This document shows, one piece after another, positions 3,479 through 56,006 of a stretch of DNA of 56,006 bases (position 1 is the first letter of the stretch; each line of letters opens with the position of its first letter). The position numbers were made by a program, and so were the translations under genes. The notes beneath the pieces were generated by a model, which was not told where the DNA came from, searched no databases, and saw only the letters and a program-made list of their open reading frames with translations. This stretch comes from Alphaproteobacteria bacterium. GTDB lineage: Bacteria; Pseudomonadota; Alphaproteobacteria; GCA-2731375. The DNA is taken from NCBI GenBank assembly GCA_029937535.1, contig JAPYPT010000003.1, positions 1-56,006 of the forward strand, given 5' to 3'.

Positions 3479-3545
3479 GCTTGCCGGCGCGGCCGATCCG
3501 TTGTCGAGGGAACGCCGCACCCGATACGGCATTGAACATATTGGT

Positions 3546-3971
3546 ATGACGGAAGCGCACGCCGAACGGCAAATCGTGATCGTAAACGACCTGACCGAGA
3601 TCACCACGGTCATCGGCGAGTTTGAAAGCTTTGCCGCGTCGTGCGCCGTGCCGCCCGACGTCATCAGCCGTTTCTGCCTGATATTCGATGAAATGCTGTC
3701 CAATATCATCTTCTATGGGTTCCCGGACCAGGGCCGCCATGAAATAGACATCGCGATGGCGCGCCAGGGCGCACGGCTTAGCGTGACCATCACCGATGAC
3801 GGCATACCGTTCGACCCCCTTGGTGCCGTGACGCCCAATATGGAGCTGCCCATCGAGGAGCGGGAAATCGCCGGCCTCGGCATTCACCTGGTCCGAAATT
3901 TGGTACACGGCGCCCGCTACCGCCGCGAAGACGGACGCAATATCATCACCCTGATCCAGGAATTGAATTAG
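3546..3971 (+). CDS. RsbW/SpoIIAB-like anti-sigma factor Ser/Thr kinase (HATPase_c_2)
   Basis: N-box DEMLSNIIFYG, G1 DDGIPFDP and G2 GLGIHLV. The ORF-track start at 3444 lies inside the repeat remnant, so ATG 3546 is preferred. Confidence 0.85.
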   Translation: MTEAHAERQIVIVNDLTEITTVIGEFESFAASCAVPPDVISRFCLIFDEMLSNIIFYGFPDQGRHEIDIAMARQGARLSVTITDDGIPFDPLGAVTPNMELPIEEREIAGLGIHLVRNLVHGARYRREDGRNIITLIQELN

Positions 3972-3980
3972 GACCGAGCC

Positions 3981-40339: not shown

Positions 40340-40477
40340 CAGCCGTTACCGTTCCACCAAATGCCGTGATTGGGCCCACGGGTTAAATGTCTTTAATGCA
40401 CGCAATAACCGGGCCGCACGCCCAATATATGCGCAAGCCTCGATCGCGGCGGTTTTTAGGCGCAACGGGGGTAGGTG

Positions 40478-41074
40478 TCAAGCGCGCGGTCGGCCTTGCG
40501 CGCGCTCCCAGTCCCGCCAATCAACGACACCGTGGTTCTGTACTTCCCCGACCGCCGCTGGCCCCGCGTGCCCACAGAATACGACAAGGTTTGAACAATC
40601 CCATCTGGCGTTGGGGACGAGAATGCCAGAGACGTCACCGGGCTCGGATGAACCGATGAAATTGGCGACTTCGGCAATTTCCTGGCATCGTGGGTACTCA
40701 CCCTGCCGATCCTGATAGGAAAGCTGACCGAACCGGTCGATATCGAGACCCAAACCGGCGAGATCATTGATTTCCGAAAGATCGAGCACGCCATCGATCC
40801 TCATCTGCAGTTCATGCAAGGTATAGCGTATTTTCGAGGGAAAGACAGGCTGCCCGCGTTTGAGATGAAAATACATCTCGGCAATCGCTCCGTCGCGCGC
40901 CATCGCGGTGTAAAGCACATCAAATGTACCGTCGTCCCACCGGTTTCCCGCAGCTGAACAAAGGCAGCGGTCCCGTCCCTCTCTGACCACCCGCCATAGG
41001 CGCCCGTCGAAGGGACATACCGGCAGCGATTCTAGAGCATCAATAAGCCGAATGTCGCGCGGGCTGAGCGCCAT
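40478..41074 (-). CDS. RES-domain toxin (MbcT/ParT-like)
   Basis: WRVVR, GNRWD, VLYTA, AIAEMY and ILVPNARW; ATG 41074 is 2 bp downstream of the antitoxin stop. Confidence 0.85.
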   Translation of the reverse strand: MALSPRDIRLIDALESLPVCPFDGRLWRVVREGRDRCLCSAAGNRWDDGTFDVLYTAMARDGAIAEMYFHLKRGQPVFPSKIRYTLHELQMRIDGVLDLSEINDLAGLGLDIDRFGQLSYQDRQGEYPRCQEIAEVANFIGSSEPGDVSGILVPNARWDCSNLVVFCGHAGPAAVGEVQNHGVVDWRDWERAQGRPRA

Positions 41075-41076
41075 TG

Positions 41077-41421
41077 CTACAAATAGCCATCGGAGTCCAA
41101 GCGATCGAGCACACGAAGCACTTCGATTGTCCGCTCCGCATTTATGAGGTCGATTGCACGCTCGCCGTCCAACTGCGGGTGACGGGCATGCAGCCAAGTG
41201 CGGATTTCCTCACTTGTATAGTAATCTTGCAGGCGTCCCACGACGTAATGAAGATCAGATAGGATCATTTCCTTGCGCGGTTGCGGTTTGATGATCCCGG
41301 TCCGCCAACGCGAAACCGTCGCTTTGGATACATCCGTGATATTTGCGATGTCCGTGCCGCGCAAACCGCCCAGATTTTCCAGATCTTCGATATTTCTTGC
41401 AATGGATGTCAAAACGCTCAT
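41077..41421 (-). CDS. Xre/MbcA/ParS-family antitoxin (HTH plus DUF2384-like C-terminus)
   Basis: HTH DIANITDVSKATVSRW; C-terminal WLHARHPQLDGERAIDLI. Confidence 0.85.
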   Translation of the reverse strand: MSVLTSIARNIEDLENLGGLRGTDIANITDVSKATVSRWRTGIIKPQPRKEMILSDLHYVVGRLQDYYTSEEIRTWLHARHPQLDGERAIDLINAERTIEVLRVLDRLDSDGYL

Positions 41422-41493
41422 GGCGGATCTTTCCTGAACAGCGCGCATTTAGGTTTCATTTTCAAATATAGTGAAACCCGAATGCGATATCAA

Positions 41494-42420
41494 TCAATTC
41501 TCCACCGTCGGGCGCACCTGCTCCATGAACAAGGTCATGGATTCTTCCAGTTGCGTGAGACTGCCGCAGCCGTTGAAGTTTAGTTGGAACTGATCCAGGC
41601 CGGCCTCGTCGCGGTATTTGGCGATATCGCTGGCCACATCCTCCGCGCTGCCGTGTCCCGTCAGCCTGTTGCCGTCGGGGCCGTGGGGGTCCTTGCCGGT
41701 GATCGCCGAGAAATTGACGCGGAAGCTCATGCGGATCTGCGGCGGCACCGTGCGTCCGATTTTGTCGCAGGCGGCCTCCAGATTGGCTTTGTGGGTGATC
41801 AGGTCGTCGAGCTTGGTGGGCACCGGCTGCCAGATAGTGGCGAATTCCGCCGCCCGGCGCAGGGCCGCCTTGGAAGAGCCGCCGATCCAGATCGGGGGAT
41901 GGGGTTGCTGGATGGGTTTCGGGGAACAATGCATATCCTCGAACTGATGATAGGCGCCCTGAAACGAGACCGGATCGGGGGCCCAGCAGGCCTGACAGAC
42001 CTTGATATATTCATCCGTCCTGGCGCCCCGGTCACCGTGGCTGACGGCAAGGGCGGCGAACTCGCTTTCCAGCCAGCCGGCGCCGAGGCCGAGGATAACG
42101 CGGCCATTGGAAAATTGGTCCAGGGTCGCCACGGTCTTGGCGACCAGAACCGGGTTGCGGTAGGGCATGATCAGGACCGAGGTGGCCAGCCTGATACGCT
42201 CGGTCCGGGCGGCGAGATAGGCCATGGTGGTCAAGGGTTCGTAGACGTTGCCCCATGACGCCACCATCTCCTCGTTGCCCTTGACGATCAGGTGGTCGTT
42301 CAACAGCACGGCGTCAAAACCAAGCGCCTCGGCCCGCTGGGCCGCCGTCACAATGGCCTCCGGCGTGGCGGGAAAGCCCAGATAGTCGGCATTGGGAATG
42401 CGGAAGGAAAACTGCATCAT
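41494..42420 (-). CDS. LLM-class oxidoreductase, probably F420-dependent Rv2161c-like
   Basis: GFDAVLLNDH, EPLTTMAYLAARTERIRLATSVL, ATLDQFSNGR, GAGWLESEF and PPIWIGG. Confidence 0.9.
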   Translation of the reverse strand: MMQFSFRIPNADYLGFPATPEAIVTAAQRAEALGFDAVLLNDHLIVKGNEEMVASWGNVYEPLTTMAYLAARTERIRLATSVLIMPYRNPVLVAKTVATLDQFSNGRVILGLGAGWLESEFAALAVSHGDRGARTDEYIKVCQACWAPDPVSFQGAYHQFEDMHCSPKPIQQPHPPIWIGGSSKAALRRAAEFATIWQPVPTKLDDLITHKANLEAACDKIGRTVPPQIRMSFRVNFSAITGKDPHGPDGNRLTGHGSAEDVASDIAKYRDEAGLDQFQLNFNGCGSLTQLEESMTLFMEQVRPTVEN

Positions 42421-42466
42421 TTATCCTCGAACCTATTTATCCTCGAGCCTATTTGTCTTCGAACTT
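42419..42466 (-). repeat. 16-bp tandem triplication spanning the SDR stop and the LLM RBS/start
   Basis: + strand ATTTATCCTCGAACCT / ATTTATCCTCGAGCCT / ATTTGTCTTCGAACTT. Confidence 0.85.
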
Positions 42467-43246
42467 TGGCGCGCTGGCGCTGCCGCCGCCGTCCACGGCA
42501 ATACGCTGGCCGTTGACATAGCTGTTGGTTTCGGAGACCAGAAAGCGCACCACGTTGGCGATGTCGTCGGGCTGGCAGACATGGCCAAAGGGCATATGGG
42601 CATCCAGCAGGCGCAGATCATCGATGCCCGAGCGGGCCTTGACCAGGCGGCGGCCCATGTCGGTCTCCACCAGTGGCGGGGCGACGATGTTGGTGCGGAT
42701 ATTATTTTTGTGTTCTTCCTTGGCCAGGGTAAAGGCCAGGGCCTCCATGGCCGCCTTGCCCATATTATAGGGTGCGCCGAAGGCGCCGTAGCTATCCGTG
42801 GCGACGGAGGAAATCATCACGATATCGCCCCTGTCCTGTTCGCGCATCATGGGCACCACCAGTTTCGACAGATAATGCGGACCAAAGGCATGCACCCGGA
42901 CCACGCGCTCCATCTCGGCCGGCTCCGTATCGGCAACGGACTGGCCCCGGCTGGCGATGCCGGCATTGTTAACCAGGATGCCGATGGGACCCATCTCGCG
43001 CCCAACATCGGCGACCATGGCCGTCACCTGTTCCAGATCCTCGACGGAGGCCTGAAAGGCTTGCGCCCTGCGCCCCAGGGCCTGAATTTCTGCCACCGCT
43101 TCCCCCGCCGACTCGCCGTCGCGCCGGTAGTTCACGGCGATATCGGCGCCATCCTTGGCCAGGGCCACGGCGATGGCGCGGCCAATGCCCCGGCCCGCGC
43201 CCGTAATCAGGGCGATGCGTCCTTCCAATGACATACTTGTCTCCAA
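42449..43246 (-). CDS. SDR-family oxidoreductase
   Basis: TGAGRGIG, NNAG and YNMGK (YxxxK). Confidence 0.93.
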   Translation of the reverse strand: METSMSLEGRIALITGAGRGIGRAIAVALAKDGADIAVNYRRDGESAGEAVAEIQALGRRAQAFQASVEDLEQVTAMVADVGREMGPIGILVNNAGIASRGQSVADTEPAEMERVVRVHAFGPHYLSKLVVPMMREQDRGDIVMISSVATDSYGAFGAPYNMGKAAMEALAFTLAKEEHKNNIRTNIVAPPLVETDMGRRLVKARSGIDDLRLLDAHMPFGHVCQPDDIANVVRFLVSETNSYVNGQRIAVDGGGSASAPKFEDK

Positions 43247-43349
43247 ATTTGGTTTCTGGTCTGATTGAGCGCCAAGATATCAGTCTCCTTGCCGGATGAG
43301 TAGGGATCAGTGATATCATTTTCCAGTATTGCACCAGGAGACACCGAAC

Positions 43350-44294
43350 ATGGGGAATACTGATATTCGGATCGAACGGCTGGGCCGGAATCTTGGCGCG
43401 CACGTGCACGGCGCGGATCTGTCCAAGCCGTTGGCGGATGCGGATTTCGCGATCATTCATGATGCCTTGGCGGAACATGAAATGCTGCTGTTCCGCGATC
43501 AGGATATCGATCCGTCGGCGCAACTCGCATTTGGCCGCCGCTTTGGTCCACCGTCGGTACATCCGTTTTCACCAAATATGGCGGAGATGCCGGAACTGAT
43601 CGTTTTGGACAATCACCACGCCAACCCGCCGCGTCTGACCGATATCTGGCATAGCGATGAAACCTTCCGCGCGGAGCCGCCCCTGGCGACGATCCTGCGC
43701 TCGACCATCACCCCGAAGCTAGGCGGCGACACCATGTTTGCCAGCATGTCGGCGGCCCATGACGGCTTGAGCGATCAATTACAGCAATTCCTGTCCGGCC
43801 TTGAGGCCATTCATGATTTCACGCCGTTCCGCACCTTGCTGGCCAGTGATGAGGACGGCCATCGCCGCCTGCGGGAACTGGAAGTTCAATTCCCCCTGCA
43901 ACCCCATCCCGTTGTCCGTGTGCATCCCGTTAGCGGCCGAAAGGTCATCTTCGTCAATCCACAATTCACAATTGGCATCAAGGGCATGGCGGAGGAGGAA
44001 AGCCGGCCCCTGCTGGCCATGCTGTTCGACCTGGCGAAAGTGCCGGAATATCAATACCGCCTGCACTGGAAAACCAACACCCTGGCGATCTGGGATAACC
44101 GGGCGGTGCAGCATTACGCCATTCACGACTATCACCCGCAGCGGCGCCGCATGGAGCGCATTACCATCAGTGGCGACAAACCGTTTGGCATCGACCATGG
44201 CCGGCAGATAACTTTGATCCCGCGCCAGCCCGTTGACAGTGAAACCCCGCCCGAAACCGATCGCGAGCCGGTCCGCCAAGTTGACCGCGGCTGA
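43350..44294 (+). CDS. TauD/TfdA-family Fe(II)/2-oxoglutarate dioxygenase
   Basis: WHSD (HxD), GGDTMF, HPVVRVHP, WDNRAVQHYA and RRMER. Confidence 0.93.
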   Translation: MGNTDIRIERLGRNLGAHVHGADLSKPLADADFAIIHDALAEHEMLLFRDQDIDPSAQLAFGRRFGPPSVHPFSPNMAEMPELIVLDNHHANPPRLTDIWHSDETFRAEPPLATILRSTITPKLGGDTMFASMSAAHDGLSDQLQQFLSGLEAIHDFTPFRTLLASDEDGHRRLRELEVQFPLQPHPVVRVHPVSGRKVIFVNPQFTIGIKGMAEEESRPLLAMLFDLAKVPEYQYRLHWKTNTLAIWDNRAVQHYAIHDYHPQRRRMERITISGDKPFGIDHGRQITLIPRQPVDSETPPETDREPVRQVDRG

Positions 44295-44340
44295 TGCTGG
44301 GGCCGCACGAGTGGTTTGAAAATTGGAGGCACGACACACC

Positions 44341-45444
44341 ATGACACCGCCCACGGATAGTTCCGAACCAAACGCCGGCTCCACGGATGGCTTGGTCTTT
44401 GTCGCCTGCGGCTTGGCGGCCGGATCGTCCGGCCATGAAAACCCCGAACGCCGGGAGGTCGTCTGCAACGGCAAGCACGTGAGAACCATTGATATCCACG
44501 CCCATTGCGCGGTGCCCGAGGCGCTGGCCCTGATGGGTCATGAGCTGGCCGGGCCGGGGTTGCGAGCCGACCTGGACATGGCGCGCGAGATCGATGTACG
44601 CATCAAGACCATGGACGAACAGGGTATCGACATGGAGGCCTTGAGCATCAACCCCAATTGGTACGGGGTCGGGGATCGGGATCTTGCGGCGCAAATCATC
44701 CAGCTTCAAAATCAGGCGTTGGCCCAGGCGTGCGCGGACAATTCCGACCGTTTCGTGGCCTTCGCCTCCGTCGCCTTGCAGTTTCCCGATCTCGCCGTTG
44801 AACAGCTTGAAGCGGGCGTGAAGGACTACGGGCTGCGCGGCGTGGCCATCGGCGGCAATGTCGCCGGCGACGAGCTCGCCGACCGGAAATTCGATCCATT
44901 CTGGGCCAAGGTCGAGCAGTTGGGCGTGCTTGCCTTCATCCATCCACAAGGCGATGGGGCTCCGGCGCAGTTGGCCTCGCGGTTCAAGGGCAACGGCTAT
45001 CTCAGCAACGTCATCGGCAATCCACTCGAAACCACCATTGCCCTCTCCCATTTGATATTCGAGGGCACCCTGGACAGATACCCGGGCCTGAAAATCTGCG
45101 CGGCTCATGCGGGCGGCTTCCTGCCCTCCTACGCCGGCCGTTTCGATCGCGGCGGCCCGGTGCGCCCCGATCTATCCCCCGGCGGGCCCCATGGCGCCAT
45201 CAACAAGGCGCCGTCGGAATACCTCAAGCAATTATACTTCGACACCATGGTCTTCCGGCCCGAAGGCGTGCGCCATTTGGTGGCGGAGGTTGGCGCCGGC
45301 CAGCTCATGGTGGGGACCGACTATCCCTATCCCTGGACGACGACGGCCATCGATCTGATCCTTGAAACACCGGACTTGAGTGATGCCGACAAGATCGCGA
45401 TCCTTGGCGGCACGGCCGCACGGTTGCTTGGCATCACACATTAA
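44341..45444 (+). CDS. Amidohydrolase-2 family protein (ACMSD-like decarboxylase/hydrolase fold)
   Basis: DIHAH (HxH), FIHP, AAHAGGFLP and GTDYPY. Confidence 0.9.
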   Translation: MTPPTDSSEPNAGSTDGLVFVACGLAAGSSGHENPERREVVCNGKHVRTIDIHAHCAVPEALALMGHELAGPGLRADLDMAREIDVRIKTMDEQGIDMEALSINPNWYGVGDRDLAAQIIQLQNQALAQACADNSDRFVAFASVALQFPDLAVEQLEAGVKDYGLRGVAIGGNVAGDELADRKFDPFWAKVEQLGVLAFIHPQGDGAPAQLASRFKGNGYLSNVIGNPLETTIALSHLIFEGTLDRYPGLKICAAHAGGFLPSYAGRFDRGGPVRPDLSPGGPHGAINKAPSEYLKQLYFDTMVFRPEGVRHLVAEVGAGQLMVGTDYPYPWTTTAIDLILETPDLSDADKIAILGGTAARLLGITH

Positions 45445-45472
45445 AGAGTGCCTCGAAAATGAAGGACCATCC

Positions 45473-46486
45473 ATGGGCGTGAGCGAATGGCGGGAAGCGG
45501 CTGGTTCGGGTCTTGGTGTCTCGTTCGAGGGTGGCGAGGCGGCGGCTGATCTGTCCGGCCTGGCCCGCCGGGCCGATAACGCCGGCGCCGATACGATGTG
45601 GCTGGCCAATCATCTGTTTCAGCGCGATCCCGTGGTGCAGGCGGCGATGGCGCTGTCCGCCACGGACAAGATCTCCGCCGCCCTGATGGCGATCTCTCCC
45701 TACGCGGTCCACCCCGTGCAGGCGGCCATGGCGGCGGCAACCCTGAACGAGCATTTTCCCAATCGAACCATATTGTGCCTGGGCGCCGGCGCGCCGGGCG
45801 ATATGGATGCCGCCGGCCTGGCCCGGCCCCGACCGCTCGCCACGCTGACGGAAAGCATCGATATCGCCAGGTCCTTGTTGGCCGGCGAAACCGTGCAGCA
45901 CCAGGGCGAACGCTTCACCGTTCGTGGCCGCGCGCTGGAAACCGGACCGCAGGAGGTGCCCATCGTCTTGGCGGCCACGGGGCAGGGGATGCTGGGGCTG
46001 GCCGGACGCCGGGCCGATGGCGTGTTGCTGTCGGCGGCAACCTCCGTGGAGTTCGTGCGCTGGTCGCTGGCCCAGGTGACGGAAGCCGCTGAAGGTAATG
46101 GCGGGCGCCGGGTGCGCCGGATCGGCCTGGTCTTCGCTTCGGTCGATGCGGATGAGGGCAGGGCCTACGGGCGTTTGAAACGCTTGCTGGCCTTCATTCT
46201 GCGCGGCGCCCACCATCGGGAAAATCTGGCAATGGGCGGCGCCGGGCTGGATCAGGGGGCGCTGTATGACGCCGTGGGGAAAGGTGATTGGGACCGCGCG
46301 GAGGCCCTTGTCAGTGACGAGGTGGTGGCCCGCCACACCGCCAGCGGCACGCCGGCGCAGGTGCGGGCCCGGCTGCATGACTATCACGGCGCCGGTTTGG
46401 ATGAAGTGGTGATCGCCGGGATGCGGGGCGAGGCGATGCTGACCGAGACCCTTGCCGCAACTCTGGCAAAAGAACCGGACCAATAA
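45473..46486 (+). CDS. LLM-class flavin-dependent oxidoreductase (Mer-like)
   Basis: RDPVVQAAMAL, HPVQAAMAAATL, LGAG, AATGQGMLGLAGRRADG and SGTPAQV. Confidence 0.87.
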   Translation: MGVSEWREAAGSGLGVSFEGGEAAADLSGLARRADNAGADTMWLANHLFQRDPVVQAAMALSATDKISAALMAISPYAVHPVQAAMAAATLNEHFPNRTILCLGAGAPGDMDAAGLARPRPLATLTESIDIARSLLAGETVQHQGERFTVRGRALETGPQEVPIVLAATGQGMLGLAGRRADGVLLSAATSVEFVRWSLAQVTEAAEGNGGRRVRRIGLVFASVDADEGRAYGRLKRLLAFILRGAHHRENLAMGGAGLDQGALYDAVGKGDWDRAEALVSDEVVARHTASGTPAQVRARLHDYHGAGLDEVVIAGMRGEAMLTETLAATLAKEPDQ

Positions 46487-46515
46487 CCAACTAAAATGAT
46501 TGAGGAGTTGTGGCG

Positions 46516-47526
46516 ATGATCGTGAGTGTTGGCTTTCCCACGGGGATGGAGGGTCTTACTTACCCGATCCCGTTTTCGGAACCCGAGGCCCTGTTGGCCA
46601 TTGCCCAGCATGCTGAGGCCTTGGGTTACCATTCGATCTGGGGCAACGACCACATGACCACCCAGCACTATGTGCAGGAAGAGTTCGGCCGGCCCCCGCG
46701 TTTTTGGGAAATATTGATGACCTATGCCTGGCTGGCCTCGCAAACCCGTAACCTGCGTTTCGGCACCGGCATTCTGGTGTTGCCCATGCGGCGGGATATC
46801 GTGGTCACCGCCAAGCAATTGGTCACCCTCGATCATCTGAGCGGCGGGCGGTTGGAACTGGGTGTCGGTGTCGGCGCTTATCGCGAGGAGTTCGAGGCCC
46901 TGTTGCCTGACGACGGCCACCATCGCGGAGGGATCGTCGAGGAAGGGGTGCGCGCCTTGCGCCTGTTGTTCACGGAGGAGCGGGCGAGCTTCGAGGGTGA
47001 GTTTTACCGCTTCCGCGACGTGGCGCTGTTTCCCAAGCCCTTGCAAGAAAATCTGCCGATTTATTTTGGCGGCAACAATGTCAATCAGTTGCGGCGGACA
47101 GCAGCGCTGGGCGATGGCTGGCTGCCCGCCGGCCTGCCCCTGGACCGGATCACCGCCGATATCGTCCACCTGCGCGAACTGTGTGACGAAGCGGGCCGGG
47201 ATTTTTCCAAGATCGCGGTGGCGCCACAATATATCGCCCTGGTCGATCATGATCACGACCGCGCGGTCGAACGCTTCAACCAATCGCAGATGCACAAACA
47301 TCTGGTCTCCCTGACCACCTCCACATTGAAGGAACAGGCCGGCATCTCCATGGTCGATGCCAATCTGGTCGGCACGCCGGGGGAAGTGGTGGAAAAGTGC
47401 CTGGCCCTGAAGGCGGCCGGCGTTACCCATCTTCTGGGTCTGTATTTCGCGGTCAACACGGTGCCTGAGTTGCTGGAGCAGATGACCCTGTTCGCCCAGG
47501 AAGTTGTGCCCTATCTCTCGGAATAG
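46516..47526 (+). CDS. LLM-class oxidoreductase, probably F420-dependent
   Basis: GYHSIWGNDH, LRFGTGILVLP, TLDHLSGGRLELGVGVG and PIYFGG. Confidence 0.9.
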   Translation: MIVSVGFPTGMEGLTYPIPFSEPEALLAIAQHAEALGYHSIWGNDHMTTQHYVQEEFGRPPRFWEILMTYAWLASQTRNLRFGTGILVLPMRRDIVVTAKQLVTLDHLSGGRLELGVGVGAYREEFEALLPDDGHHRGGIVEEGVRALRLLFTEERASFEGEFYRFRDVALFPKPLQENLPIYFGGNNVNQLRRTAALGDGWLPAGLPLDRITADIVHLRELCDEAGRDFSKIAVAPQYIALVDHDHDRAVERFNQSQMHKHLVSLTTSTLKEQAGISMVDANLVGTPGEVVEKCLALKAAGVTHLLGLYFAVNTVPELLEQMTLFAQEVVPYLSE

Positions 47527-47544
47527 CCACGGAGGAGCAAGACA

Positions 47545-48714
47545 TTGGACGTCGAGAAACTGAGGGCGGAGACACCTGGTATAGCCGAGGGTATCCATTT
47601 GCTCGCCGCCGGTTCCGCCCTAATGCCGCAACCCGTTATTGATGCGGTGATCGATCATACCAAGCTGGAGGGGCGGCTGGGTGGCTATGAGGCGAAAGCG
47701 CAAATGGCGGAAAAACTGGATGGTGTCTACGACGTGGTTGCGGCGCTTATTGGAGCGGAGCGCCGGGAAATTGCCCTGATGGAAAACGCGACTGTGGCTT
47801 GGTGTCACGCTTTTTACGCCCTGCCCCTGGCGCCCGGCGCGCGCATTCTGACGTGCGAGGCGGAATACGCCGCCAATTATGTGGCCTTTCTTCAGCGGGC
47901 AAAAAAAGACAATCTTGTCATTGATGTAATACCGAACGATGCCAGCGGCGCGCTTGACCCAGGCGCCCTTGAAGCCATGATCGATGATCGCGTCGGCCTG
48001 ATCGCGACAACCTGGATTCCCACCAATGGTGGCCTGGTCAATCCGGCCGCCGCAGTCGGTCGCGTCGCCAGGAAACATAACATCCCCTATTTGCTGGATG
48101 CCTGCCAGGCGGTGGGACAGATGCCCGTGGATGTTGGCGCGCTGGGGTGTGATTTCCTGTCGGCGACGGGCCGCAAGTTTCTGCGCGGACCCAGGGGATC
48201 GGGGTTTTTGTATGTGGCGAAAAAATGGCTGGCGGATTTGGAGCCGGTCATGATCGACCACTTCGCCGCACCCTGGGTCGCCAGGGACCGCTATCAACTT
48301 CGCGATGACGCCCGGCGCTTTGAAAGCTGGGAGAATTCATATGCCTTGCGCGCCGGTTTGGGCGCGGCGGTGGAAATCGCGACGGCACTTGGGCTGGCGG
48401 CCATTCAAGACCGGACATGGGGTCTGGCGGCCACCTGCCGGGACATGCTGAAGGAGCTTCCAGGAGCAAAAATCAGAGATATCGGCACGGAGCAATGCGC
48501 CATCGTGAGCTTCACCATTGACGGGTTGGAGCCACGGCAAACCGTCGCCGACCTGTTGCGACAGGGCATTGCCATCGGCGCCTCCAGTCCCGCCAGCACC
48601 CGACTTGACGCCGAGGCCCGCGACCTGCCCGAGCTCTTGCGCCTCGCTCCCCATTACTACAATACCGAACAGGAATTGAAGCAGCTCATCCAGGCCTTGC
48701 GGGGCCTCGGATAG
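47545..48714 (+). CDS. Class V aminotransferase-fold PLP enzyme
   Basis: LLDACQAVGQ and SATGRKFLRGPRGSGFLY (PLP Lys); no persulfide-forming Cys motif. Confidence 0.88.
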   Translation: MDVEKLRAETPGIAEGIHLLAAGSALMPQPVIDAVIDHTKLEGRLGGYEAKAQMAEKLDGVYDVVAALIGAERREIALMENATVAWCHAFYALPLAPGARILTCEAEYAANYVAFLQRAKKDNLVIDVIPNDASGALDPGALEAMIDDRVGLIATTWIPTNGGLVNPAAAVGRVARKHNIPYLLDACQAVGQMPVDVGALGCDFLSATGRKFLRGPRGSGFLYVAKKWLADLEPVMIDHFAAPWVARDRYQLRDDARRFESWENSYALRAGLGAAVEIATALGLAAIQDRTWGLAATCRDMLKELPGAKIRDIGTEQCAIVSFTIDGLEPRQTVADLLRQGIAIGASSPASTRLDAEARDLPELLRLAPHYYNTEQELKQLIQALRGLG

Positions 48715-48797
48715 CTCCCTCGGCGGGGCTGGGCACTCCCGGCTTGTCCATGCTAGCGTTGCGGCAAGCCAAGGGATATCCGCCGGAGGGTCGGTGA

Positions 48798-49652
48798 TTG
48801 CAGTTCTGTAGAGCACATAGTCTTGACGAGGCGCTTGAGTTATTGGGCCAATGGGGCGGGGACGGCTGTCTTCTCGCCGGCGGCACGGACGTGATGGTGC
48901 AATATAATAGCGGCGCGATCACGCCGGGCGCCTTCATCCATATTGAGGGGATCGAACCGCTGTCGGCGATCTCGATCAATGGCCGGACCACCCTCGGCGC
49001 GCTCAACACCCACGCTAAACTTGCGGCCGATGGGGATATTGCCTCCCGCCACCCGGCGGTGGCCCGCGCCGCGCGCCTGGTGGGCGGGTGGCAAACCCAG
49101 ACGGTTGGGACCGTGGGGGGCAATCTTTGCAATGGCTCGCCGGCGGCCGACCTGGCGCCGCCGCTGCTGATTGCCGACGCCCACGTTACCTTGACCTCGC
49201 TGAATGGCGAGCGCCGCCTGCCGCTGGATGATTTTTTTATCGACCGTCGCGCCACCGCCCGCCGTCCCGACGAACTGCTGACACTGATCGACCTGGATCC
49301 GGTGCCGCCCCGTGGCGGTGAACACTATGTCAAGCTGGGCCGGCGGGGCGCCATGGATGTGGCCATCGTCGGTCTCGCCGCCCGCCTTGGTCTGGGTGAC
49401 GATGGCAATATTGCATTTGCACGGGTCGCGGTCTGTTCGGTGACGGCGACACCGCGGCGGATACGGGAGGTCGAGGCCGCGCTGGTGGGCGTCCCCCTGG
49501 AGGCCGGCGCCTTCGCGGCGGCGGGCCAGGCGCTGGTCGCGGCCGTATCGCCCATCGATGACGCGCGGGCCACGGCCTCCTATCGCCGGCGGGTTCTGCC
49601 CGGCCTGCTGGAACGGGCGGTATTGCGCTGTGGCGAGGACATCCGGCCATGA
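48798..49652 (+). CDS. Molybdenum hydroxylase FAD-binding subunit (CoxM/XdhA-like)
   Basis: LAGGTD and GTVGGNLCNGSPAADL. Confidence 0.9.
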   Translation: MQFCRAHSLDEALELLGQWGGDGCLLAGGTDVMVQYNSGAITPGAFIHIEGIEPLSAISINGRTTLGALNTHAKLAADGDIASRHPAVARAARLVGGWQTQTVGTVGGNLCNGSPAADLAPPLLIADAHVTLTSLNGERRLPLDDFFIDRRATARRPDELLTLIDLDPVPPRGGEHYVKLGRRGAMDVAIVGLAARLGLGDDGNIAFARVAVCSVTATPRRIREVEAALVGVPLEAGAFAAAGQALVAAVSPIDDARATASYRRRVLPGLLERAVLRCGEDIRP

Positions 49653-50131
49653 CCGATGATCAATCCGTGCCTGTCCGCTTCACGGTGAACGGCAGGGAAC
49701 AGGAGCTCCAGGTCGGAGCCGGCGAGACCCTGCTGCGGACATTGCGGGATCGATTGTACCTGACCGGCGCCAAGGAAGGCTGCCTTGAAGGCGAATGCGG
49801 GGCCTGCACGGTGCTGGTCGATGGCGCGCCGGTGGATTCCTGCATTCTGGCCACCGCCGCCATGGAGGGCCGTGAGGTCCGCACCGTCGAAGGGCTATCC
49901 CAGGTTGACCAAATCAGCCCCCTGCAGCAGGCCTTCCTCGATCATGCGGCGGTGCAATGCGGCTTCTGTATTCCGGGTATCCTGATGACCCTCACCGCGT
50001 TGCTTGAGAGGCAGCCGTCGCCAACCCGCGAGGGGATCGAAACGGCGCTGGCGGGCAATATCTGCCGCTGCACCGGGTACCGGCAGATTGTCGAAGCGGC
50101 CATGGCTGTCGCGGCGGAGGAGACTTCATGA
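49649..50131 (+). CDS. Molybdenum hydroxylase 2Fe-2S subunit (CoxS-like)
   Basis: GCLEGECGACTV, QCGFCIPG and CRCTGY. Confidence 0.95.
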   Translation: MTDDQSVPVRFTVNGREQELQVGAGETLLRTLRDRLYLTGAKEGCLEGECGACTVLVDGAPVDSCILATAAMEGREVRTVEGLSQVDQISPLQQAFLDHAAVQCGFCIPGILMTLTALLERQPSPTREGIETALAGNICRCTGYRQIVEAAMAVAAEETS

Positions 50132-52413
50132 CCGCCGTGGGAACAAGCGTCGTGAGGAGCGATGGCGAGGCCAAGGTGCGGGGCGACGCTATCTTTGGCG
50201 TCGATCTCGCCGTGCACGGCATGCTCCATGCCCGATTGCTGCGGGCTCCGGTTCCGGCCGGGTTCATCCGCCGTATCGACACCAGCCGGGCGGCGGCCAG
50301 CCCCGGCGTCCACGACGTCGTGACCGGGGCCGACGTTCGAAACGACCGCACCGGCATCGTCGTCTCCGATTCTCCGTTGTTCGCGGCGGACTACATCACC
50401 TACGAGGGCGAGCCGATCGCGGCGGTGGTGGCCGATACACCGGAGCTGGCGGAGGCCGCAATTCGGAAGATCGAGCTTGAAATAGACGAAACGGCCCCGG
50501 TGGCGACACCGGAACAGGCGTTGTCGCCAGGGTCCCGGCTGGTCCATCCCGCATGGGCCGAATTCGACATCGCCGGCGGGGCTGAGTTCGCCCGCGGCGG
50601 CAACATCGCGGCCGAGATCCTGTCGGACCCCGGCGACATCGATGCGGCATTCGCGGGCGCCGATCATGTGGTGGAGGATTCTTACCGGGCGCCGAGGCAA
50701 TATCAGGCGTATCTGGAGCCCAAAATGGCCTTGGCCACCTATGAGGCCGGACGCTACACGATCCAGGTCTCGCACCAGTATCCGTTCCGGATTCGCGACC
50801 GTCTGGCCCAGGTTCTCGACGTACCAAAATCAGCCATCCGCGTCGTTGGGCACCACATCGGCGGTGGTTTCGGCGCCAAGCTTGACCTTGGTCTGGAACC
50901 CTATGCCGCCGTGTTGGCCCGGCGCACGGGGCGGCCGATCAAAATGGTCAACACCGCGTCCGAAGAACGGCTGACGGCGCCCTGCCGGGATAATGCGACG
51001 GTGAAGATCCGTTCCGCCGTAGGGCGCGACGGCACGATCCTGGCCCAGGATGTGGACGTGGTCTACGACAGCGGCGCCTACGCCAACAATGGGCCCGCCT
51101 TGGTCAGCATTCCCATGTTCATGTATGGCTCGATCTACCGCGTCGGTACGGTGCGGATCCGCTCCCGCATGGCCTATACCAACACGGCGCCGACCGGCGC
51201 CTTCCGGGGCGTCAGCGGACCCTATCTGGTGTTCGCCGCCGAGCGGCACATGGATCACATCGCCAATGAGCTTGGCCGCGACCGGCGGGAGTACCGCCTG
51301 GCCTCGCTGGCCGCTGACGGCCACAAAATGCGCAACGGCCAGGCCCTGGAACAGCTTTCCATCCTGCGCGAGGCCTTCGATCTGGTGGAAGAACACGTGC
51401 CATGGGCTGGAAGTGGCCAGGGCCAACAAAGCAACGGAAAGCTGCGGGGCATCGGGATCGCGGCGGCCGTCTGGCTGACCAATCCCGCCCCTGGGCAGGC
51501 CACGGTGAAACTGAACGAGGACGGCACGCTGACGGTGGTGACCGCCGCCACCGACAGCGGCTCGGGCGCCGTGTTTACGGGCCTGCGGCAGATCGCCGCC
51601 GAATGCCTGGGGCTTGCCGCCGATCAGGTCACCATCACCATGCCCGACACCGATGTCGCGGGCTTCGATGCCGGCTCCCAAGGCAGCCGCACGACCCATG
51701 TAGCGGGCCGCGCCGTCCTTGATGCGACCACTGAAGTCCGAAAACGGGTGCTCGAAAAAGCCGCCTCGATGCTGGAGGCGGCGAGCGAGGATCTGGTGAT
51801 CGAGGATGGCGACATTCATGTGGCCGGCGTCCCGGACATGCGGGTGAGTATAAGCCAGGTCGCCATGGCTGCGACCTTTGGCCAGGGTCCGATCGTCGGA
51901 ACCGGTTCATACACCACGCCGCCGCCGCCCCATGATCCAGCATGCACGACGGGGATGCTGTTCTCCACCTGGCCGACGCCCACCTACCATGTTCACTACG
52001 CCGAAGTTGAGGTCGACCCGGTCACCGGCCAGGTCAGCGTAGAGCGTTATGTGATCGCCCAGGAAGTAGGCCGGGCGATCAACCCCGATGCCATCATGGG
52101 CCAGGTCCAGGGCGGCGTCGCGCAAGGGCTTGGCTATGCCCTGTGGGAACGGATGGATATCGAAGACGCCAGATATGTACAGCGCAATTTCGAGACCCAT
52201 GGACTGCCGCTGGCCTGCGACATGCCAGAGGTCGAAGCCATCCTGATGGAACACCCCGAGGCCGCTGGCCCCTATGGCGCCAAGGGTGCGGCCGAGCCAC
52301 CCATCGTGCCCGTGGCCGCCGTGATCGCCAACGCGGTGTCGGATGCCATTGGCGCGCCCATCGATACCATACCCATCACGCCCGAGGCCGTCCTCGAGGC
52401 GCTCGAGCGATGA
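50128..52413 (+). CDS. Xanthine dehydrogenase-family molybdopterin subunit (CoxL-like, not CO dehydrogenase)
   Basis: GGGFGAK, GAFRG, QGGVAQGLG and catalytic Glu in GAKGAAEPP. Confidence 0.93.
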   Translation: MTAVGTSVVRSDGEAKVRGDAIFGVDLAVHGMLHARLLRAPVPAGFIRRIDTSRAAASPGVHDVVTGADVRNDRTGIVVSDSPLFAADYITYEGEPIAAVVADTPELAEAAIRKIELEIDETAPVATPEQALSPGSRLVHPAWAEFDIAGGAEFARGGNIAAEILSDPGDIDAAFAGADHVVEDSYRAPRQYQAYLEPKMALATYEAGRYTIQVSHQYPFRIRDRLAQVLDVPKSAIRVVGHHIGGGFGAKLDLGLEPYAAVLARRTGRPIKMVNTASEERLTAPCRDNATVKIRSAVGRDGTILAQDVDVVYDSGAYANNGPALVSIPMFMYGSIYRVGTVRIRSRMAYTNTAPTGAFRGVSGPYLVFAAERHMDHIANELGRDRREYRLASLAADGHKMRNGQALEQLSILREAFDLVEEHVPWAGSGQGQQSNGKLRGIGIAAAVWLTNPAPGQATVKLNEDGTLTVVTAATDSGSGAVFTGLRQIAAECLGLAADQVTITMPDTDVAGFDAGSQGSRTTHVAGRAVLDATTEVRKRVLEKAASMLEAASEDLVIEDGDIHVAGVPDMRVSISQVAMAATFGQGPIVGTGSYTTPPPPHDPACTTGMLFSTWPTPTYHVHYAEVEVDPVTGQVSVERYVIAQEVGRAINPDAIMGQVQGGVAQGLGYALWERMDIEDARYVQRNFETHGLPLACDMPEVEAILMEHPEAAGPYGAKGAAEPPIVPVAAVIANAVSDAIGAPIDTIPITPEAVLEALER

Positions 52414-52434
52414 AAAACATATAGGTAAGCCGTC

Positions 52435-53424
52435 ATGAGTGCTGAACATCCCATTGGCTTGGTTCTCGGCAGCGCCGTCGCGCCGGAGCAGATACAACAA
52501 TCGGCGGCGGCGGCGGAGGCCTGCGGTTTCGATGAAATCTGGCTGGCCGAGGACTATTTTTTTACCGGCGGCATCTCCGGCGCGTCCCTGGTGCTGGGCG
52601 CCACATCGCATATTACGGTCGGTCTCGGGGTGGTCTCGGCCGTGGCCCGTCACCCGGCTTTACTGGCCATGGAAATCGCCACCCTGAGCCGTGTGCACAA
52701 GGACCGTCTTATCGCCGGCATCGGCCTCGGCGTGCCGGCCTGGGTGCGCCAGATGGGCCTGCATCCCGCCTCGCCCCTGGGCGCGCTGCGCGAATGCGTG
52801 ACCGCCACCAAATCGCTTTTGCGGGGCGAGACCATGGATGTACGGGGCGACGTATTTACCTTCAACGACGTCACCCTGGTCTACCCGGAGACCGGCGCGC
52901 CGACGCCGGTGCGCATGGGCGTGATCGGCCCGAAGATGCTGCAGCTATCGGGCGAGGTGGCCGATGGCTCGGTCCTCTCGGTTTCCGCCGGGCACGACTA
53001 CGTACGCTGGGCCAAGGCGCGCATTGACGAAGGTCGGGAGAAGGCTGGGCGCACCGATGCCCATCCGATCACCGTGTTCGCCATCTATGCGGTGGATGAC
53101 GACGGCGACGCGGCGCGGGCCTCGGCCCGGTCCCGATTGGCATTCTACCGGCAGAACGGATCGAACGGTCTGACCGACGTTTACGGTATCTCCGATGAGC
53201 TGAACGATCTGGTCAAGCGCGGCGGCTTTGAGGCGGTGCTGGACGGGATGCCGGACGCTTGGGTGGAGGATCTGACCATCGCCGGCACGCCGGAAGAATG
53301 CGCGGCGAAGATTTCAGGGTTCTACGCGGCGGGCGCCGACGCGGTGGCCCTGTTCCCCGTGGCCACGGACCGAATTGACGAGATCGTCCGGCTGACCGCG
53401 GATCAGGTCCTGCCCCGGCTCTAA
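52435..53424 (+). CDS. LLM-class flavin-dependent oxidoreductase (Mer-like)
   Basis: GFDEIWLAED, RHPALLAMEIATL, GIGLG, GPKMLQLSGEVADG and AGTPEEC. Confidence 0.9.
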   Translation: MSAEHPIGLVLGSAVAPEQIQQSAAAAEACGFDEIWLAEDYFFTGGISGASLVLGATSHITVGLGVVSAVARHPALLAMEIATLSRVHKDRLIAGIGLGVPAWVRQMGLHPASPLGALRECVTATKSLLRGETMDVRGDVFTFNDVTLVYPETGAPTPVRMGVIGPKMLQLSGEVADGSVLSVSAGHDYVRWAKARIDEGREKAGRTDAHPITVFAIYAVDDDGDAARASARSRLAFYRQNGSNGLTDVYGISDELNDLVKRGGFEAVLDGMPDAWVEDLTIAGTPEECAAKISGFYAAGADAVALFPVATDRIDEIVRLTADQVLPRL

Positions 53425-53454
53425 ATACGATCAACGCAGCGGCGAGGTTGGAAA

Positions 53455-54504
53455 ATGCGTTTTGGAATTCAATTTTTCCCCGATGTCGGGCCGGAGGTGA
53501 AGTCGGCGCAAGATTACTGGCGGGAAGCCCTGCATCTGGTCTCCCTTTGCGACGAACTTGGTTTCGATAATGTCCGTACGGTGGAACATTATTTCCATCC
53601 CTACGGCGGCTATAGCCCGAACCCGATTGTCTTTCTGGCCGCCGCCGCCATGCGCACGGCAAAGGCGCGTTTGATTACCGGCGCGGTGTTGCCGGTGTTC
53701 AACAACCCGCTGAAGCTCGCGGCCGAGATCGCCATGCTGGATGCGATCAGCGGGGGCCGATTGGACGTCGGCTTTGCCCGGGCGTTCCTGCCACATGAGT
53801 TTGCCCATTTCAAAGTGTCATTGGATGAAAGCCGCGCCCGTTTCGATGAAGGCGTGGAACAGGTGCGCTTGTTGCTGGAAAATGAAAGCGCCAGCCACGA
53901 TGGTGAATTTCATGCCTTTGAAAACGTCACCTCCCTGCCCCGCCCGACCCAGCAACCGCGCCCGCCCTTCTGGATTGCCGCCCTGGCGACACCGCAAAGT
54001 TTCGAAGGCGCCGGCCGCGCCGGGCACGGCATCATGGCGATCCCCATGGCGGGGGCCATGATGGCGGATTTGATTGGCCTATACCGTGAAAATTGGCGGG
54101 CCGCCGGCCATCCCGGAGACGGCCAGGTTATGTTGGCGTTTCATATGCTCTGCCACGCCGACGGGGGCCGGGCGGCGCGGATCGCACGCGATCCTCTCAA
54201 TCGATATTTGAAGTCCCTGGTGGATGGCGCGTCCCATTGGTTGGGAGGCTCCAATTCCGCCGATTATCCCGGCTACGACAAGATCATCGCCTCCCTGAAC
54301 GCGGAAACCTTCGATACCCAGGTCGAAAAGGGCGCCGCCTGGGTCGGAGAACCCGCCGCGATCATCGACACCATCAAGCGTTATGAGAAAATGGTCGGTG
54401 GCTTTGAAATCGCCTCCCTGCAGGTAAACTTCAACACCGTCGCCGTGGAAGACGCCGAAGCCTCGATGCGGCTATTTTCCGAGACGGTCATGCCTGGGTT
54501 TTAG
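53455..54504 (+). CDS. LLM-class monooxygenase (bacterial luciferase-like)
   Basis: GFDNVRTVEHYF, NPLKLAAEIAMLDAISGGRLDVGFARAF and PRPTQQPRPPFW. Confidence 0.9.
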   Translation: MRFGIQFFPDVGPEVKSAQDYWREALHLVSLCDELGFDNVRTVEHYFHPYGGYSPNPIVFLAAAAMRTAKARLITGAVLPVFNNPLKLAAEIAMLDAISGGRLDVGFARAFLPHEFAHFKVSLDESRARFDEGVEQVRLLLENESASHDGEFHAFENVTSLPRPTQQPRPPFWIAALATPQSFEGAGRAGHGIMAIPMAGAMMADLIGLYRENWRAAGHPGDGQVMLAFHMLCHADGGRAARIARDPLNRYLKSLVDGASHWLGGSNSADYPGYDKIIASLNAETFDTQVEKGAAWVGEPAAIIDTIKRYEKMVGGFEIASLQVNFNTVAVEDAEASMRLFSETVMPGF

Positions 54505-54921
54505 CGTATTTTCATCACTGGATCGGAAATCTCCCGTGATATCGGCGCCAAAAGCAAGAGGCGGACCGTGCGGCCTTCCTTCATTAAGATGGTAGCGTCC
54601 CCTTTTTTTATCCTTCGGCGGGCCTACCCGTACCCGGTAAAATCGATACCAGGCCAAAAGCGGCCAAATAGATCACCAACACCACGGCAGCCAAAAATGC
54701 CGAATATTATTCTCATGGGCCGGCCCTCTGGGCTGCCTCAGGAAATTGGCGATCATATTAAGTGACGGTTCGCCATTTTAAGGTGGCGGTATTGAGAATT
54801 ATTGTACCTACGCTGAACCCCGCCAACAGAGCTCGCACGACGTTTTCATCAAACATCTTGCCCGCGACTTTCGATTGCATGTTAGAATCGGCATACAATT
54901 GTCAAAGCTGAAGGAGGTGAT

Positions 54922-55911
54922 ATGCCGACCGATGGAACGACGGCTATTTCTTGCCCGATTTGTGCCAACGCGGATGCCGAGGTAGGGGCGTCAGGCCTGG
55001 GCGACTATCGGCTCTTCAGGTGCCCCCAGTGTGGTGATTTCGGGCTTGCCGCCACAGCCCTTACACTTCTACCTAAATACCTTGAGGACTGGAACGATGC
55101 CGCCGCAGTTCTCTCGTACTTCGTCAATCGAATGCCAGGGTCACCACCTCACGACGTGCCAATACTGAATTCCGATGACATCAAGAACATCGTCGTCAAC
55201 GGAAGCCTGCCGACGCCTGCAGCTCAAGCCGATAATCTACTTCGCTGGATCGGCGACAATGTGCCTGGGCCGGGGGAAACCGTTTCGATTGAGCCCAAAA
55301 TCATGGCCGCCGTAGTGGGCGCAAAATCAGGCAAGGGAGTGCAGTACATCCTTGAGGGACTTGAAGAAAATGGTCTTATTCAAGGTGCGATCATAAAAAC
55401 GTTTAGTGGGCAATCAGGCGGACACGTCACGCCGTCTTTTGCCGGTTGGGGATGGATTGAAGAATTACAGCGTGGCGCCGCAACGGGCAACATGGCTTTC
55501 ATGGCTATGCAATATGGCGAAGAAGCGCTCGACAATTTTGTGCGAGATCATTTCGCTCCGGCAGTCGCGGAAACAGGTTTCCACCTCCAAAGACTGGATG
55601 ACGTGCCGAAGGCCGGCCTGATTGACGACCGATTGCGGGTTGAAATCCAATCCTGCCGGTTCCTTATTGCCGATCTGAGCCACGCCAACAACGGAGCCTA
55701 TTGGGAGGCTGGCTATGCTGAAGGCCTGGGCAAGCCGGAAATTTACACCTGTGAGCAGTCAGCGTTCGATCAGAACAAAACCCACTTTGACACCAATCAC
55801 CATCTGACGGTGATCTGGTCCTATGACGATCCGGAGAAGGCGGCGGACAATCTGAAAGCAACTATACGAGCAACACTGCCCGACGCCGCCCGACAAACCG
55901 CAGAAGTCTGA
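54922..55911 (+). CDS. Hypothetical protein: N-terminal Zn ribbon plus C-terminal nucleoside 2-deoxyribosyltransferase-like domain
   Basis: CPIC...CPQC; C-terminal FMAMQY...IDDRLRVEIQSCRFLIADLSHANNGAYWEAGYAEGLGKP...HFD matches the NDT/Rcl-like pattern; AAGGAGG RBS. Confidence 0.75.
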   Translation: MPTDGTTAISCPICANADAEVGASGLGDYRLFRCPQCGDFGLAATALTLLPKYLEDWNDAAAVLSYFVNRMPGSPPHDVPILNSDDIKNIVVNGSLPTPAAQADNLLRWIGDNVPGPGETVSIEPKIMAAVVGAKSGKGVQYILEGLEENGLIQGAIIKTFSGQSGGHVTPSFAGWGWIEELQRGAATGNMAFMAMQYGEEALDNFVRDHFAPAVAETGFHLQRLDDVPKAGLIDDRLRVEIQSCRFLIADLSHANNGAYWEAGYAEGLGKPEIYTCEQSAFDQNKTHFDTNHHLTVIWSYDDPEKAADNLKATIRATLPDAARQTAEV

Positions 55912-56006
55912 TTGCTGATCTTCTAATATTCGAAGGGACCTTAGCCATGCGTCTAATTTCCATGGTCAGGGTTAGATCCTCCGTCTTCAGACGGACAGCT
56001 TCAGCA

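Follow-up and report, generated by a model that had tools for sequence, protein, structure and literature searches.

Expanded families of paralogous luciferase-like oxidoreductases (LLMs), dependent on flavin mononucleotide (FMN) or F420, have been described in the SAR202 lineage of the Chloroflexota, for which a role in the oxidation of recalcitrant marine dissolved organic matter was proposed (Landry et al. 2017, PMC5395668). This proposal centres on Baeyer-Villiger chemistry. The Chloroflexota also harbour reductive uric-acid gene clusters, in which a predicted F420-dependent isoxanthine reductase of the 'luciferase family' is encoded beside XdhD/XdhA-type enzymes (bioRxiv 10.1101/2025.05.19.654654). 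Among Alphaproteobacteria, F420 producers were documented in Paracoccus and Oligotropha (Ney et al. 2017, reviewed in PMC8498797), with only trace amounts of F420 reported in these two species, and the role of this cofactor in Proteobacteria is regarded as an open question (PMC8498797). Here, we analysed a 56,006-nucleotide stretch of the genome of an uncultured marine alphaproteobacterium (hereafter the window; assembly GCA_029937535.1, contig JAPYPT010000003.1), which carries at positions 41494-54504 an array, or island, of twelve enzyme genes including five LLMs and a three-subunit molybdenum hydroxylase of the xanthine dehydrogenase (XDH) family. Our analyses favour the view, to which we assign a probability of about 0.55, that this array is a real, probably co-transcribed mosaic restricted to a single species, and that it represents a co-regulated toolkit for related recalcitrant nitrogen- and sulfur-containing organic compounds rather than one obligate linear pathway.

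Like SAR202, the host of this array is a marine heterotroph with very many deeply diverged LLM paralogs alongside short-chain dehydrogenases/reductases (SDRs) and 'purine dehydrogenases/oxidases', and in both cases a toolkit is proposed rather than single pathways. In contrast to SAR202, the host is an alphaproteobacterium with F420 biosynthesis and Fno encoded in its genome, has many LLMs of the TIGR03619 family, and has the parts fused in one array. With the urate clusters of Chloroflexota, the island shares the coupling of an XDH-family molybdoenzyme to a putative F420H2-dependent ring reductase of PF00296, which in both cases is predicted from genes; it differs by a three-subunit enzyme of another clade and by an aerobic-type marine alphaproteobacterial host. 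The F420 variant of the reductive urate (2,8-dioxopurine) cluster was rejected as an identity for the island, since SsnA, HyuA, and YgeW/X/Y are absent from the twelve genes. As in Paracoccus and Oligotropha, the F420 biosynthesis genes are accompanied by Fno, but here cofE is universal in the whole family, whose genomes carry 39-147 first-look LLM candidates each.

The array can be divided into five or six modules, here lettered A to E. Module A comprises two genes on the minus strand, LLM0 (41494-42420; TIGR03619, a family annotated as F420-dependent) and a classical SDR (42449-43246; adh_short and adh_short_C2), together with the first gene of the plus-strand series, encoding a TauD-family Fe(II)/2-oxoglutarate dioxygenase (43350-44294; PF02668). 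All subsequent genes are located on the plus strand. Module B is a single gene for an ACMSD-like metal-dependent decarboxylase or hydrolase (44341-45444; Amidohydro_2, PF04909), and module C is the pair formed by the Mer-like LLM1 (45473-46486) and the TIGR03619 member LLM2 (46516-47526), to which a class-V pyridoxal phosphate (PLP) enzyme is linked (47545-48714; Aminotran_5). Module D consists of the molybdenum hydroxylase, with its medium subunit binding flavin adenine dinucleotide (FAD; 48798-49652; FAD_binding_5 and CO_deh_flav_C), its small iron-sulfur (FeS) subunit with two [2Fe-2S] motifs (49649-50131; Fer2 and Fer2_2), and its molybdopterin large (Mo) subunit (50128-52413; Ald_Xan_dh_C, MoCoBD_1, and MoCoBD_2), followed by the Mer-like LLM3 (52435-53424). 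Module E is LLM4 (53455-54504), a predicted FMN-type luciferase-like monooxygenase.

Gene starts were fixed by the gene calls of independent assemblies, and families were assigned by Pfam and NCBIfam hidden Markov model (HMM) scans. These confirmed every gene, their order, and the gaps of at most 83 bp listed in an earlier note that had been made from the sequence of this DNA; its count of five LLMs in the island and six in the window was also correct, the sixth being located at 15694-16758. All twelve genes were assigned to Pfam families, none of which corresponds to a flavin reductase, a transporter, a regulator, or a cof gene, as that note had stated. From TauD to LLM4, consecutive genes are separated by 46, 28, 29, 18, 83, -4, -4, 21, and 30 bp, and the spacers of 18-83 bp contain ribosome-binding-site-like sequence only. 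No intergenic terminator-like hairpin was found from TauD to LLM4, and promoter and terminator scans gave nothing above the shuffled background. At least 10 further metagenome assemblies, from GCA_0299359xx records and Logan SRR216074xx, show the identical twelve-gene order, which rules out an assembly chimera. The locus is a genuine array.

The mosaic origin of the array was revealed by blastn comparison of positions 40400-56006 with 20 other species of the genus, hereafter sister species, designated by G-numbers with G000 for the window genome. No match spans any module junction. Module A was found in 5 sister species, with LLM0-SDR alone in 2 more, and the Amidohydro_2 gene of module B stands alone at other loci in about 13. 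The LLM1-LLM2 pair of module C occurs in about 13 sister species, and the island-type PLP gene in three, being located beside LLM1-LLM2 in G003 and G005 and beside a paralogous cassette in G010. Module D, with its four genes FAD-FeS-Mo-LLM3, is present in 6 sister species and LLM4, alone, in 3. Both G003 and G005 possess A, B, C, the PLP gene, and D at separate loci, which in G003 (40 contigs) are spread over contigs C6, C1, and C2. Sub-modules are thus conserved, each with its own phyletic distribution, but the whole gene order, whose conservation the earlier note had made a point to check, was recovered in no other species examined. These differing distributions argue against one obligate multi-step pathway and, as the modules were inherited independently in sister species, lead us to read the array as a co-regulated toolkit. 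Of the two options offered by the earlier note, a multi-step pathway or a substrate-range toolkit, the second wording is consequently the better fit, while the first is at odds with a complete order seen in one species.

How the modules came together can be traced in part. In G005 (contig C119) and G018 (contig C214), the order leuBDC-trmD-rimM-rpsP-ffh-LLM0-SDR/TauD is followed by genes that are found on another contig in G000. This synteny indicates that module A is resident, and that about 10 kb, corresponding to modules B to E, was added behind TauD in this species only. Pre-existing accessory modules would have been joined end to end behind the resident LLM0-SDR/TauD at the ffh locus. Orthologs of the SDR in sister species are 89-92% identical, and blastn detected no second copy of any module in G000. 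The modules are mobile. The arrangement cupin-LLM1-LLM2-PLP occurs on two contigs (ctg187 and ctg432) of ENA ERZ28669063, where it is surrounded by transposases (IS66, DDE_Tnp_1, Transposase_mut, and rve) and appears to be carried on mobile DNA, and the context of module D differs in each species. Two mechanisms of joining were considered and set aside: miniature inverted-repeat transposable elements (MITEs) or insertion sequences (ISs), as there is no copy of the window's MITE in the 41-56 kb region and no transposase in the island, and an integron-like cassette array, which is unlikely given the length and composition of the spacers. No pseudogenes and no IS or MITE copies were found at the junctions.

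The window genome is rich in paralogs. Its 5.58 Mb (534 contigs) contain about 102 LLM open reading frames according to an iterated HMM that was trained on the LLMs of the island. At least 32 of these are of the TIGR03619 type. There are also about 31 TauD-type dioxygenases, about 20 Mo large subunits, about 14 FeS subunits, and 13 Amidohydro_2-like matches. With LLMs making up about 2% of all genes, rearrangements in the flexible part of such a genome might have gathered unrelated genes with no functional or regulatory link. We regard this neutral pile-up as unlikely. The paralog load, the mobility of the modules, the restriction of the array to one species, and the near-chance proximity of LLM and XDH genes across the genome are all in its favour, but at least five LLMs within 13.1 kb were obtained in 0.35% of 20,000 random placements, and the genes from TauD to LLM4, ten in all, point the same way, with spacers of 18-83 bp that leave no room for promoters of their own. 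The clean junctions, the catalytic motifs, which are intact in every enzyme checked, and the stability of the array across the independent assemblies also speak against a neutral origin. No other contig of the genome carries more than two LLMs, and a recent tandem duplication is excluded by the closest paralogs of the island LLMs, which are only 33-40% identical.

Within the mosaic, the molybdenum hydroxylase and its Mer-like partner LLM3 form the best-supported functional unit. The FAD subunit (284 amino acids) has no 4Fe-4S insertion, the small subunit contains eight Cys in two clusters, and the Mo subunit has GGGFG and a C-terminal AKGAAE motif with the catalytic Glu. With Ald_Xan_dh_C, two MoCo-binding domains, two [2Fe-2S] motifs, and FAD_binding_5, the complex belongs to the three-subunit XDH-family molybdenum hydroxylases. 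Its Mo subunit scored below the cut-off of every NCBIfam equivalog, the best being the alpha subunit of 4-hydroxybenzoyl-CoA reductase (451.6 vs 994.6) and XdhA (441 vs 780), so that none of XdhA/PucD, 4-hydroxybenzoyl-CoA reductase, CoxL, PaoC, and glyceraldehyde dehydrogenase was reached; the identity with 4-hydroxybenzoyl-CoA reductase was ruled out by this alpha score. By its sequence, the Mo subunit is a member of an uncharacterised XDH-family clade. The nearest structures of the trio are 4-hydroxybenzoyl-CoA reductase (1rm6), 6-hydroxypseudooxynicotine dehydrogenase (7dqx), and quinoline 2-oxidoreductase (1t3q). All three have the same domain set, two [2Fe-2S] motifs, FAD subunit, and C-terminal catalytic Glu motif, but are matched at only 226-285 bits, with equivalog scores of about half of any cut-off, and 4-hydroxybenzoyl-CoA reductase has in its FAD subunit an extra 4Fe-4S loop that the island protein lacks. 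None of these three systems has, to our knowledge, a conserved LLM partner.

This partnership is conserved well beyond the genus. The four genes of module D remain together in the 6 sister species, at 80-82% Mo identity, and a gene resembling LLM3 (37-44% identity) directly follows the Mo gene in seven distant alphaproteobacterial metagenome-assembled genome (MAG) loci at 48-53% Mo identity, with a gap of about 3 nt where readable. All 11 genomes with an island-type Mo homolog carry cofE, including Acidobacteria and Gaiellaceae MAGs, and nine of them have an adjoining LLM3-like gene. In the Acidobacteria MAG JACZST010000002.1, FAD-FeS-Mo are 62-70% identical to their island counterparts (Mo 69%) and the LLM3 homolog 72%, which suggests that module D was transferred across phyla. 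Its neighbours in this MAG encode DUF917 (S-Me-THD-like), hydantoinase A, M24 peptidase, PALP, and SDR proteins, and a version of the module with 49% identity is flanked by an isochorismatase, a Bmp/PnrA-type ABC transporter, and an IclR regulator. Just past LLM3, three sister species (G003, G007, and G010) carry an enoyl-CoA hydratase gene, and a CoA ligase or a 4HBT thioesterase is encoded close by. At E < 1e-8, the PDB matches of LLM3 comprise F420-dependent enzymes (Mer, Fgd1, fHMAD, and Adf) and a single unnamed member of the luciferase family, but no FMN-dependent structure.

The remaining enzymes of modules A and B were also typed. The SDR possesses the TGxxxGxG and YxxxK motifs. The island TauD (PF02668, 220 bits) matches E. 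coli TauD (1gqw) at 245 bits and has retained the ligands of Fe (H99, D101, and H255), 2-oxoglutarate (T126 and R266), and the sulfonate (H70 and R270). It differs at the residues that bind the taurine amine, Y73 being replaced by S and N95 by T with an insertion, and S158 being gapped. With a score of 285.7 against a cut-off of 313 in the taurine dioxygenase model and these residues not kept, the identity as taurine dioxygenase was rejected in favour of membership in the wider TauD/TfdA family, and the substrate, judging from the conserved ligands, is likely a sulfonate other than taurine. The Amidohydro_2 protein (PF04909, 134 bits) has human ACMSD as its best PDB match (137 bits), with the ACMSD-type metal and catalytic residues in HAH at 59, IHPQ at 206, AHAGG at 261, and GTDYP at 331, and matched no NCBIfam equivalog. 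An ortholog of 80% identity is found in G003 (contig C1, 4700-9973), after another XDH trio (28% Mo identity) and a cupin gene. This pairing of hydroxylase and decarboxylase resembles known heteroaromatic-acid pathways.

The PLP enzyme (Aminotran_5, 181 bits) has kept the PLP-binding Lys. It is not a cysteine desulfurase of the SufS/NifS/IscS type (SufS model 159.7 vs 475), as it has Ala at the position where the SufS-like protein of the same genome carries its catalytic, persulfide-forming Cys (QHCAEP), nor the hercynylcysteine sulfoxide lyase EgtE (175.2 vs 400); lacking the desulfurase cysteine, it would be of the lyase or transaminase type. Homologs with at least 79% identity always adjoin an LLM1/LLM2-type pair, in five different arrangements, and those with 74% identity or less stand alone. 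The PLP enzyme was therefore discarded as the anchor of a conserved neighbourhood, its homologs of about 70% identity in Marinomonas, Cohaesibacter, and others being alone in unrelated contexts. Stand-alone homologs (72-73%) in ERZ26222911 and GCA_947497475.1 adjoin SBP_bac_1-type ABC transporter genes, with a full LysR-ABC-PLP row in ERZ26222911. There are hints from gene contexts that this PLP family may act on an imported amine or amino acid. Within the pair itself, LLM1 is always accompanied by LLM2, whose orthologs (86-90% identity) are always located directly after it. One of the five arrangements is the cassette PLP(83%)-Mo(34%)-FAD-FeS-LLM1'(48%)-LLM2'(43%), in which the Mo subunit and the LLMs are not orthologs of those of the island. 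It was detected in G010 (contig C53, 3565-10610) and in JGI 3300022888, 3300024261, and 3300024259, with genes for a class-I/II aminotransferase and a Peripla_BP_5 ABC transporter on its flanks. Recurrence with non-orthologous parts suggests a real functional affinity of molybdenum hydroxylases, Mer-like and TIGR03619 LLMs, the PLP enzyme, and the decarboxylase.

Which cofactor the island LLMs use was approached by the HMM typing recommended in the earlier note. LLM0 (236.7 bits) and LLM2 (195 bits) are above the TIGR03619 cut-off of 166.9, and LLM1 and LLM3 proved Mer-like. The latter two did not reach the Mer equivalog cut-offs, with 156.4 and 169.4 vs 276 in NF002619 and 125 and 152 vs 348.7 in TIGR03555, and are Mer-like in predicted fold and nearest neighbours only. 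Among PDB entries, LLM1 matches at E < 1e-8 F420-dependent enzymes, mainly Mer but also Fgd1, and a single unnamed luciferase-family protein; FMN-dependent structures are absent. Membership in the RutA, SsuD, SfnG, or DszA-like families, which cleave C-N or C-S bonds, was rejected for all island LLMs: the best island scores for RutA, SsuD, SfnG, and NtaA-DmoA (DszA-like) were 72.7 vs 498, 80.7 vs 518, 107.7 vs 383, and 81 vs 279.7, respectively. LLM4 aligns over its full length with RslO1 (PDB 7BIP; 318 bits), an FMN-dependent LLM of rishirilide biosynthesis (PMC8093152), and from this similarity is clearly FMN-type. RslO1 is encoded in a polyketide cluster with its own flavin reductase, whereas LLM4 is part of a catabolic-looking array with no reductase nearby; in G017, its ortholog is located between an amidase and an Amidohydro_1 gene. 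The earlier note had taken several of the LLMs for F420-type enzymes, which is supported for LLM0 and LLM2 by family membership and for LLM1 and LLM3 by their nearest neighbours, and does not extend to LLM4.

The genome has the capability to make F420. A search for cofactor genes, also proposed in the earlier note, recovered cofC, cofD, cofE, and fbiC, whose absence would have spoken against F420, along with four stand-alone PF01613 flavin reductases outside the island. Contig C395 carries cofD-cofC-fbiC (2-4186; TIGR01819 293.6 bits, TIGR03552 138 vs 105, and TIGR03551 508 bits), with fbiC encoding an 823-amino-acid CofG/CofH fusion, and contig C12 carries cofE-fno (27-3616; TIGR01916 260 bits and TIGR01915 206 vs 150), with a TIGR03619 LLM and, in divergent orientation, a TIGR03559 LLM directly behind. 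As the F420 genes are located at the very start of both contigs or are cut by it, the two sets may be contiguous on the real chromosome. As a reducer of F420, Fno is present and no match to Fgd was found in the genome, in a search whose control also matched nothing. The earlier note considered F420 notable in an alphaproteobacterium; it is less surprising than supposed, having been documented already (PMC8498797). In a set of 61 related genomes, 33 from the family and 28 from other families, cofE was detected in 33 of 33 and 6 of 28, respectively. LLMs above the TIGR03619 cut-off occurred in 36 of 39 cofE-positive and in none of the 22 cofE-negative relatives (4 of 7 vs 0 of 22 when counted at family level), and first-look LLM candidate counts of 31 or more were reached only in cofE-positive genomes.

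Taken together, these data make it fairly probable that LLM0 to LLM3 use F420. The competing explanation would see the island LLMs as two-component FMNH2-dependent monooxygenases, fed by stand-alone flavin reductases, with no role for F420 at this locus. The four PF01613 proteins could supply such a system, LLM4 is itself FMN-type, the PDB entries closest to LLM0 (3rao, 8cbb, 7bip, and SfnG) are either FMN enzymes or LLMs for which no cofactor is stated, and LLM1 and LLM3 remain below all curated F420-family cut-offs. This explanation is, however, difficult to reconcile with the confinement of TIGR03619 to cofE-positive genomes among the relatives, the TIGR03619 LLM that this genome encodes alongside fno and cofE, the lack of any FMN-dependent structure among the close matches of LLM1 and LLM3, and the presence of cofE in every genome with the Mo clade, nine times with an adjoining LLM3-like gene. 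We consider it rather doubtful.

Several observations weigh against the interpretation of the array as a co-transcribed toolkit drawing partly on F420. None of the 20 sister species showed an intermediate stage of the fusion. LLM1, whose best HMM matches are all to F420 families, and LLM3 score below every curated F420-family cut-off, and the PDB neighbours of LLM0 and LLM2 are a mix of FMN-dependent (SfnG, LuxA-like) and F420-dependent enzymes that are equally close. Genome-wide, an LLM is located within 5 kb of a Mo subunit in 6 cases against 4.3 expected; with values this near chance, adjacency alone is weak evidence here and conservation across genomes is what counts. The island has neither a CoA ligase nor a hydratase, hints of CoA thioesters coming from sister species only, and there is no transporter or regulator among its twelve genes. 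Finally, co-transcription is probable from gene spacing alone.

In the working model that we propose, the FAD-FeS-Mo enzyme would hydroxylate an activated (hetero)aromatic ring with water, the ring being possibly a carboxylate or a CoA thioester, and LLM3, as a Mer-like hydride transferase, would then use F420H2 to reduce this hydroxylated ring or a bond next to it. The F420H2 would be made from NADPH by Fno, which is encoded elsewhere. The ACMSD-like enzyme might take off a ring carboxylate, and the LLM1/LLM2 pair together with the cysteine-less PLP enzyme might process an amine or amino-acid-like side product. TauD would attack a sulfonate-type substituent, with LLM0 and the SDR acting alongside, and LLM4 would be an FMNH2-dependent oxygenase served by one of the four stand-alone flavin reductases. 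Reaction order and substrate class are tentative in this scheme: genes suggestive of ring or N-compound chemistry recur beside the modules in relatives, which may hint at N-heterocyclic, cyclic-amide, or (hetero)aroyl-CoA substrates but at nothing more specific. That one N/S heterocycle or organosulfonate would be processed by all twelve enzymes in turn is improbable, since the tight co-directional packing with spacers reduced to ribosome-binding sites, the complementary chemistries (hydroxylase, decarboxylase, PLP enzyme, and oxygenases), and the recurrent associations of the PLP gene with another molybdenum hydroxylase and LLM1'/LLM2' (G010 and JGI contigs) and of the Amidohydro_2 ortholog with another XDH trio (G003) are outweighed by presence/absence patterns that differ among modules never adjacent in the sister species, by the separate loci of A, B, C, PLP, and D in G003 and G005, and by the lack of a transporter, a regulator, and a ring-opening enzyme in the island. 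A bolder reading is a closed F420 loop, in which the hydroxylase would pass two substrate electrons through its FAD subunit to F420 and LLM3 would spend the F420H2 on reducing the same ring. The resulting hydroxylation and dearomatisation would be redox-neutral, and F420 would be the central hydride currency of recalcitrant-organic catabolism in the family, a proteobacterial counterpart of SAR202; we view this idea as a long shot.

On the left of the array, leuBDC-trmD-rimM-rpsP-ffh are followed by a toxin-antitoxin pair, which marks the boundary and lies outside the enzyme array, with a RES toxin (40478-41074, minus strand; Pfam RES) and an Xre-type antitoxin (41077-41421, minus strand; from gene calls). 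Inserted between ffh and LLM0, this pair forms an indel of about 1 kb that is present in G000, G016, G020, and G011 and absent from G005 and G018, where about 90 bp next to ffh still align and LLM0 comes directly after ffh. On the right, the array is followed by a gene of 329 amino acids with a low GC content (0.55; 54922-55911) and by the contig end. This gene matched no Pfam family above cut-off, the only match being a sub-threshold one to Nuc_deoxyrib_tr (nucleoside 2-deoxyribosyltransferase), and has weak homologs in just 2 of the 20 sister species by blastn. Contigs C348 and C418 both begin with the very 55 bp that end this contig (55952-56006), an assembly-graph fork that makes the sequence past this gene ambiguous.

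The occurrence of F420 in Alphaproteobacteria (PMC8498797) and the clustering of molybdenum hydroxylases with accessory oxidoreductases are known already. New to the literature that we searched are the cassette of a molybdenum hydroxylase and a Mer-like LLM restricted to F420 producers, the LLM1-LLM2-PLP trio, an alphaproteobacterial family with universal cofE and its large complement of LLM candidates, and the species-specific fusion of five modules. The four-gene cassette, so far found only in genomes with cofE, and the LLM1-LLM2-PLP trio are clonable candidates for F420 roles in Proteobacteria. The genus offers a clear case in which a paralog-rich marine degrader has built an operon by fusing accessory modules. 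This is relevant to the bacterial attack on recalcitrant dissolved organic compounds of nitrogen and sulfur, and the genus is also a possible source of new deazaflavin biocatalysts.

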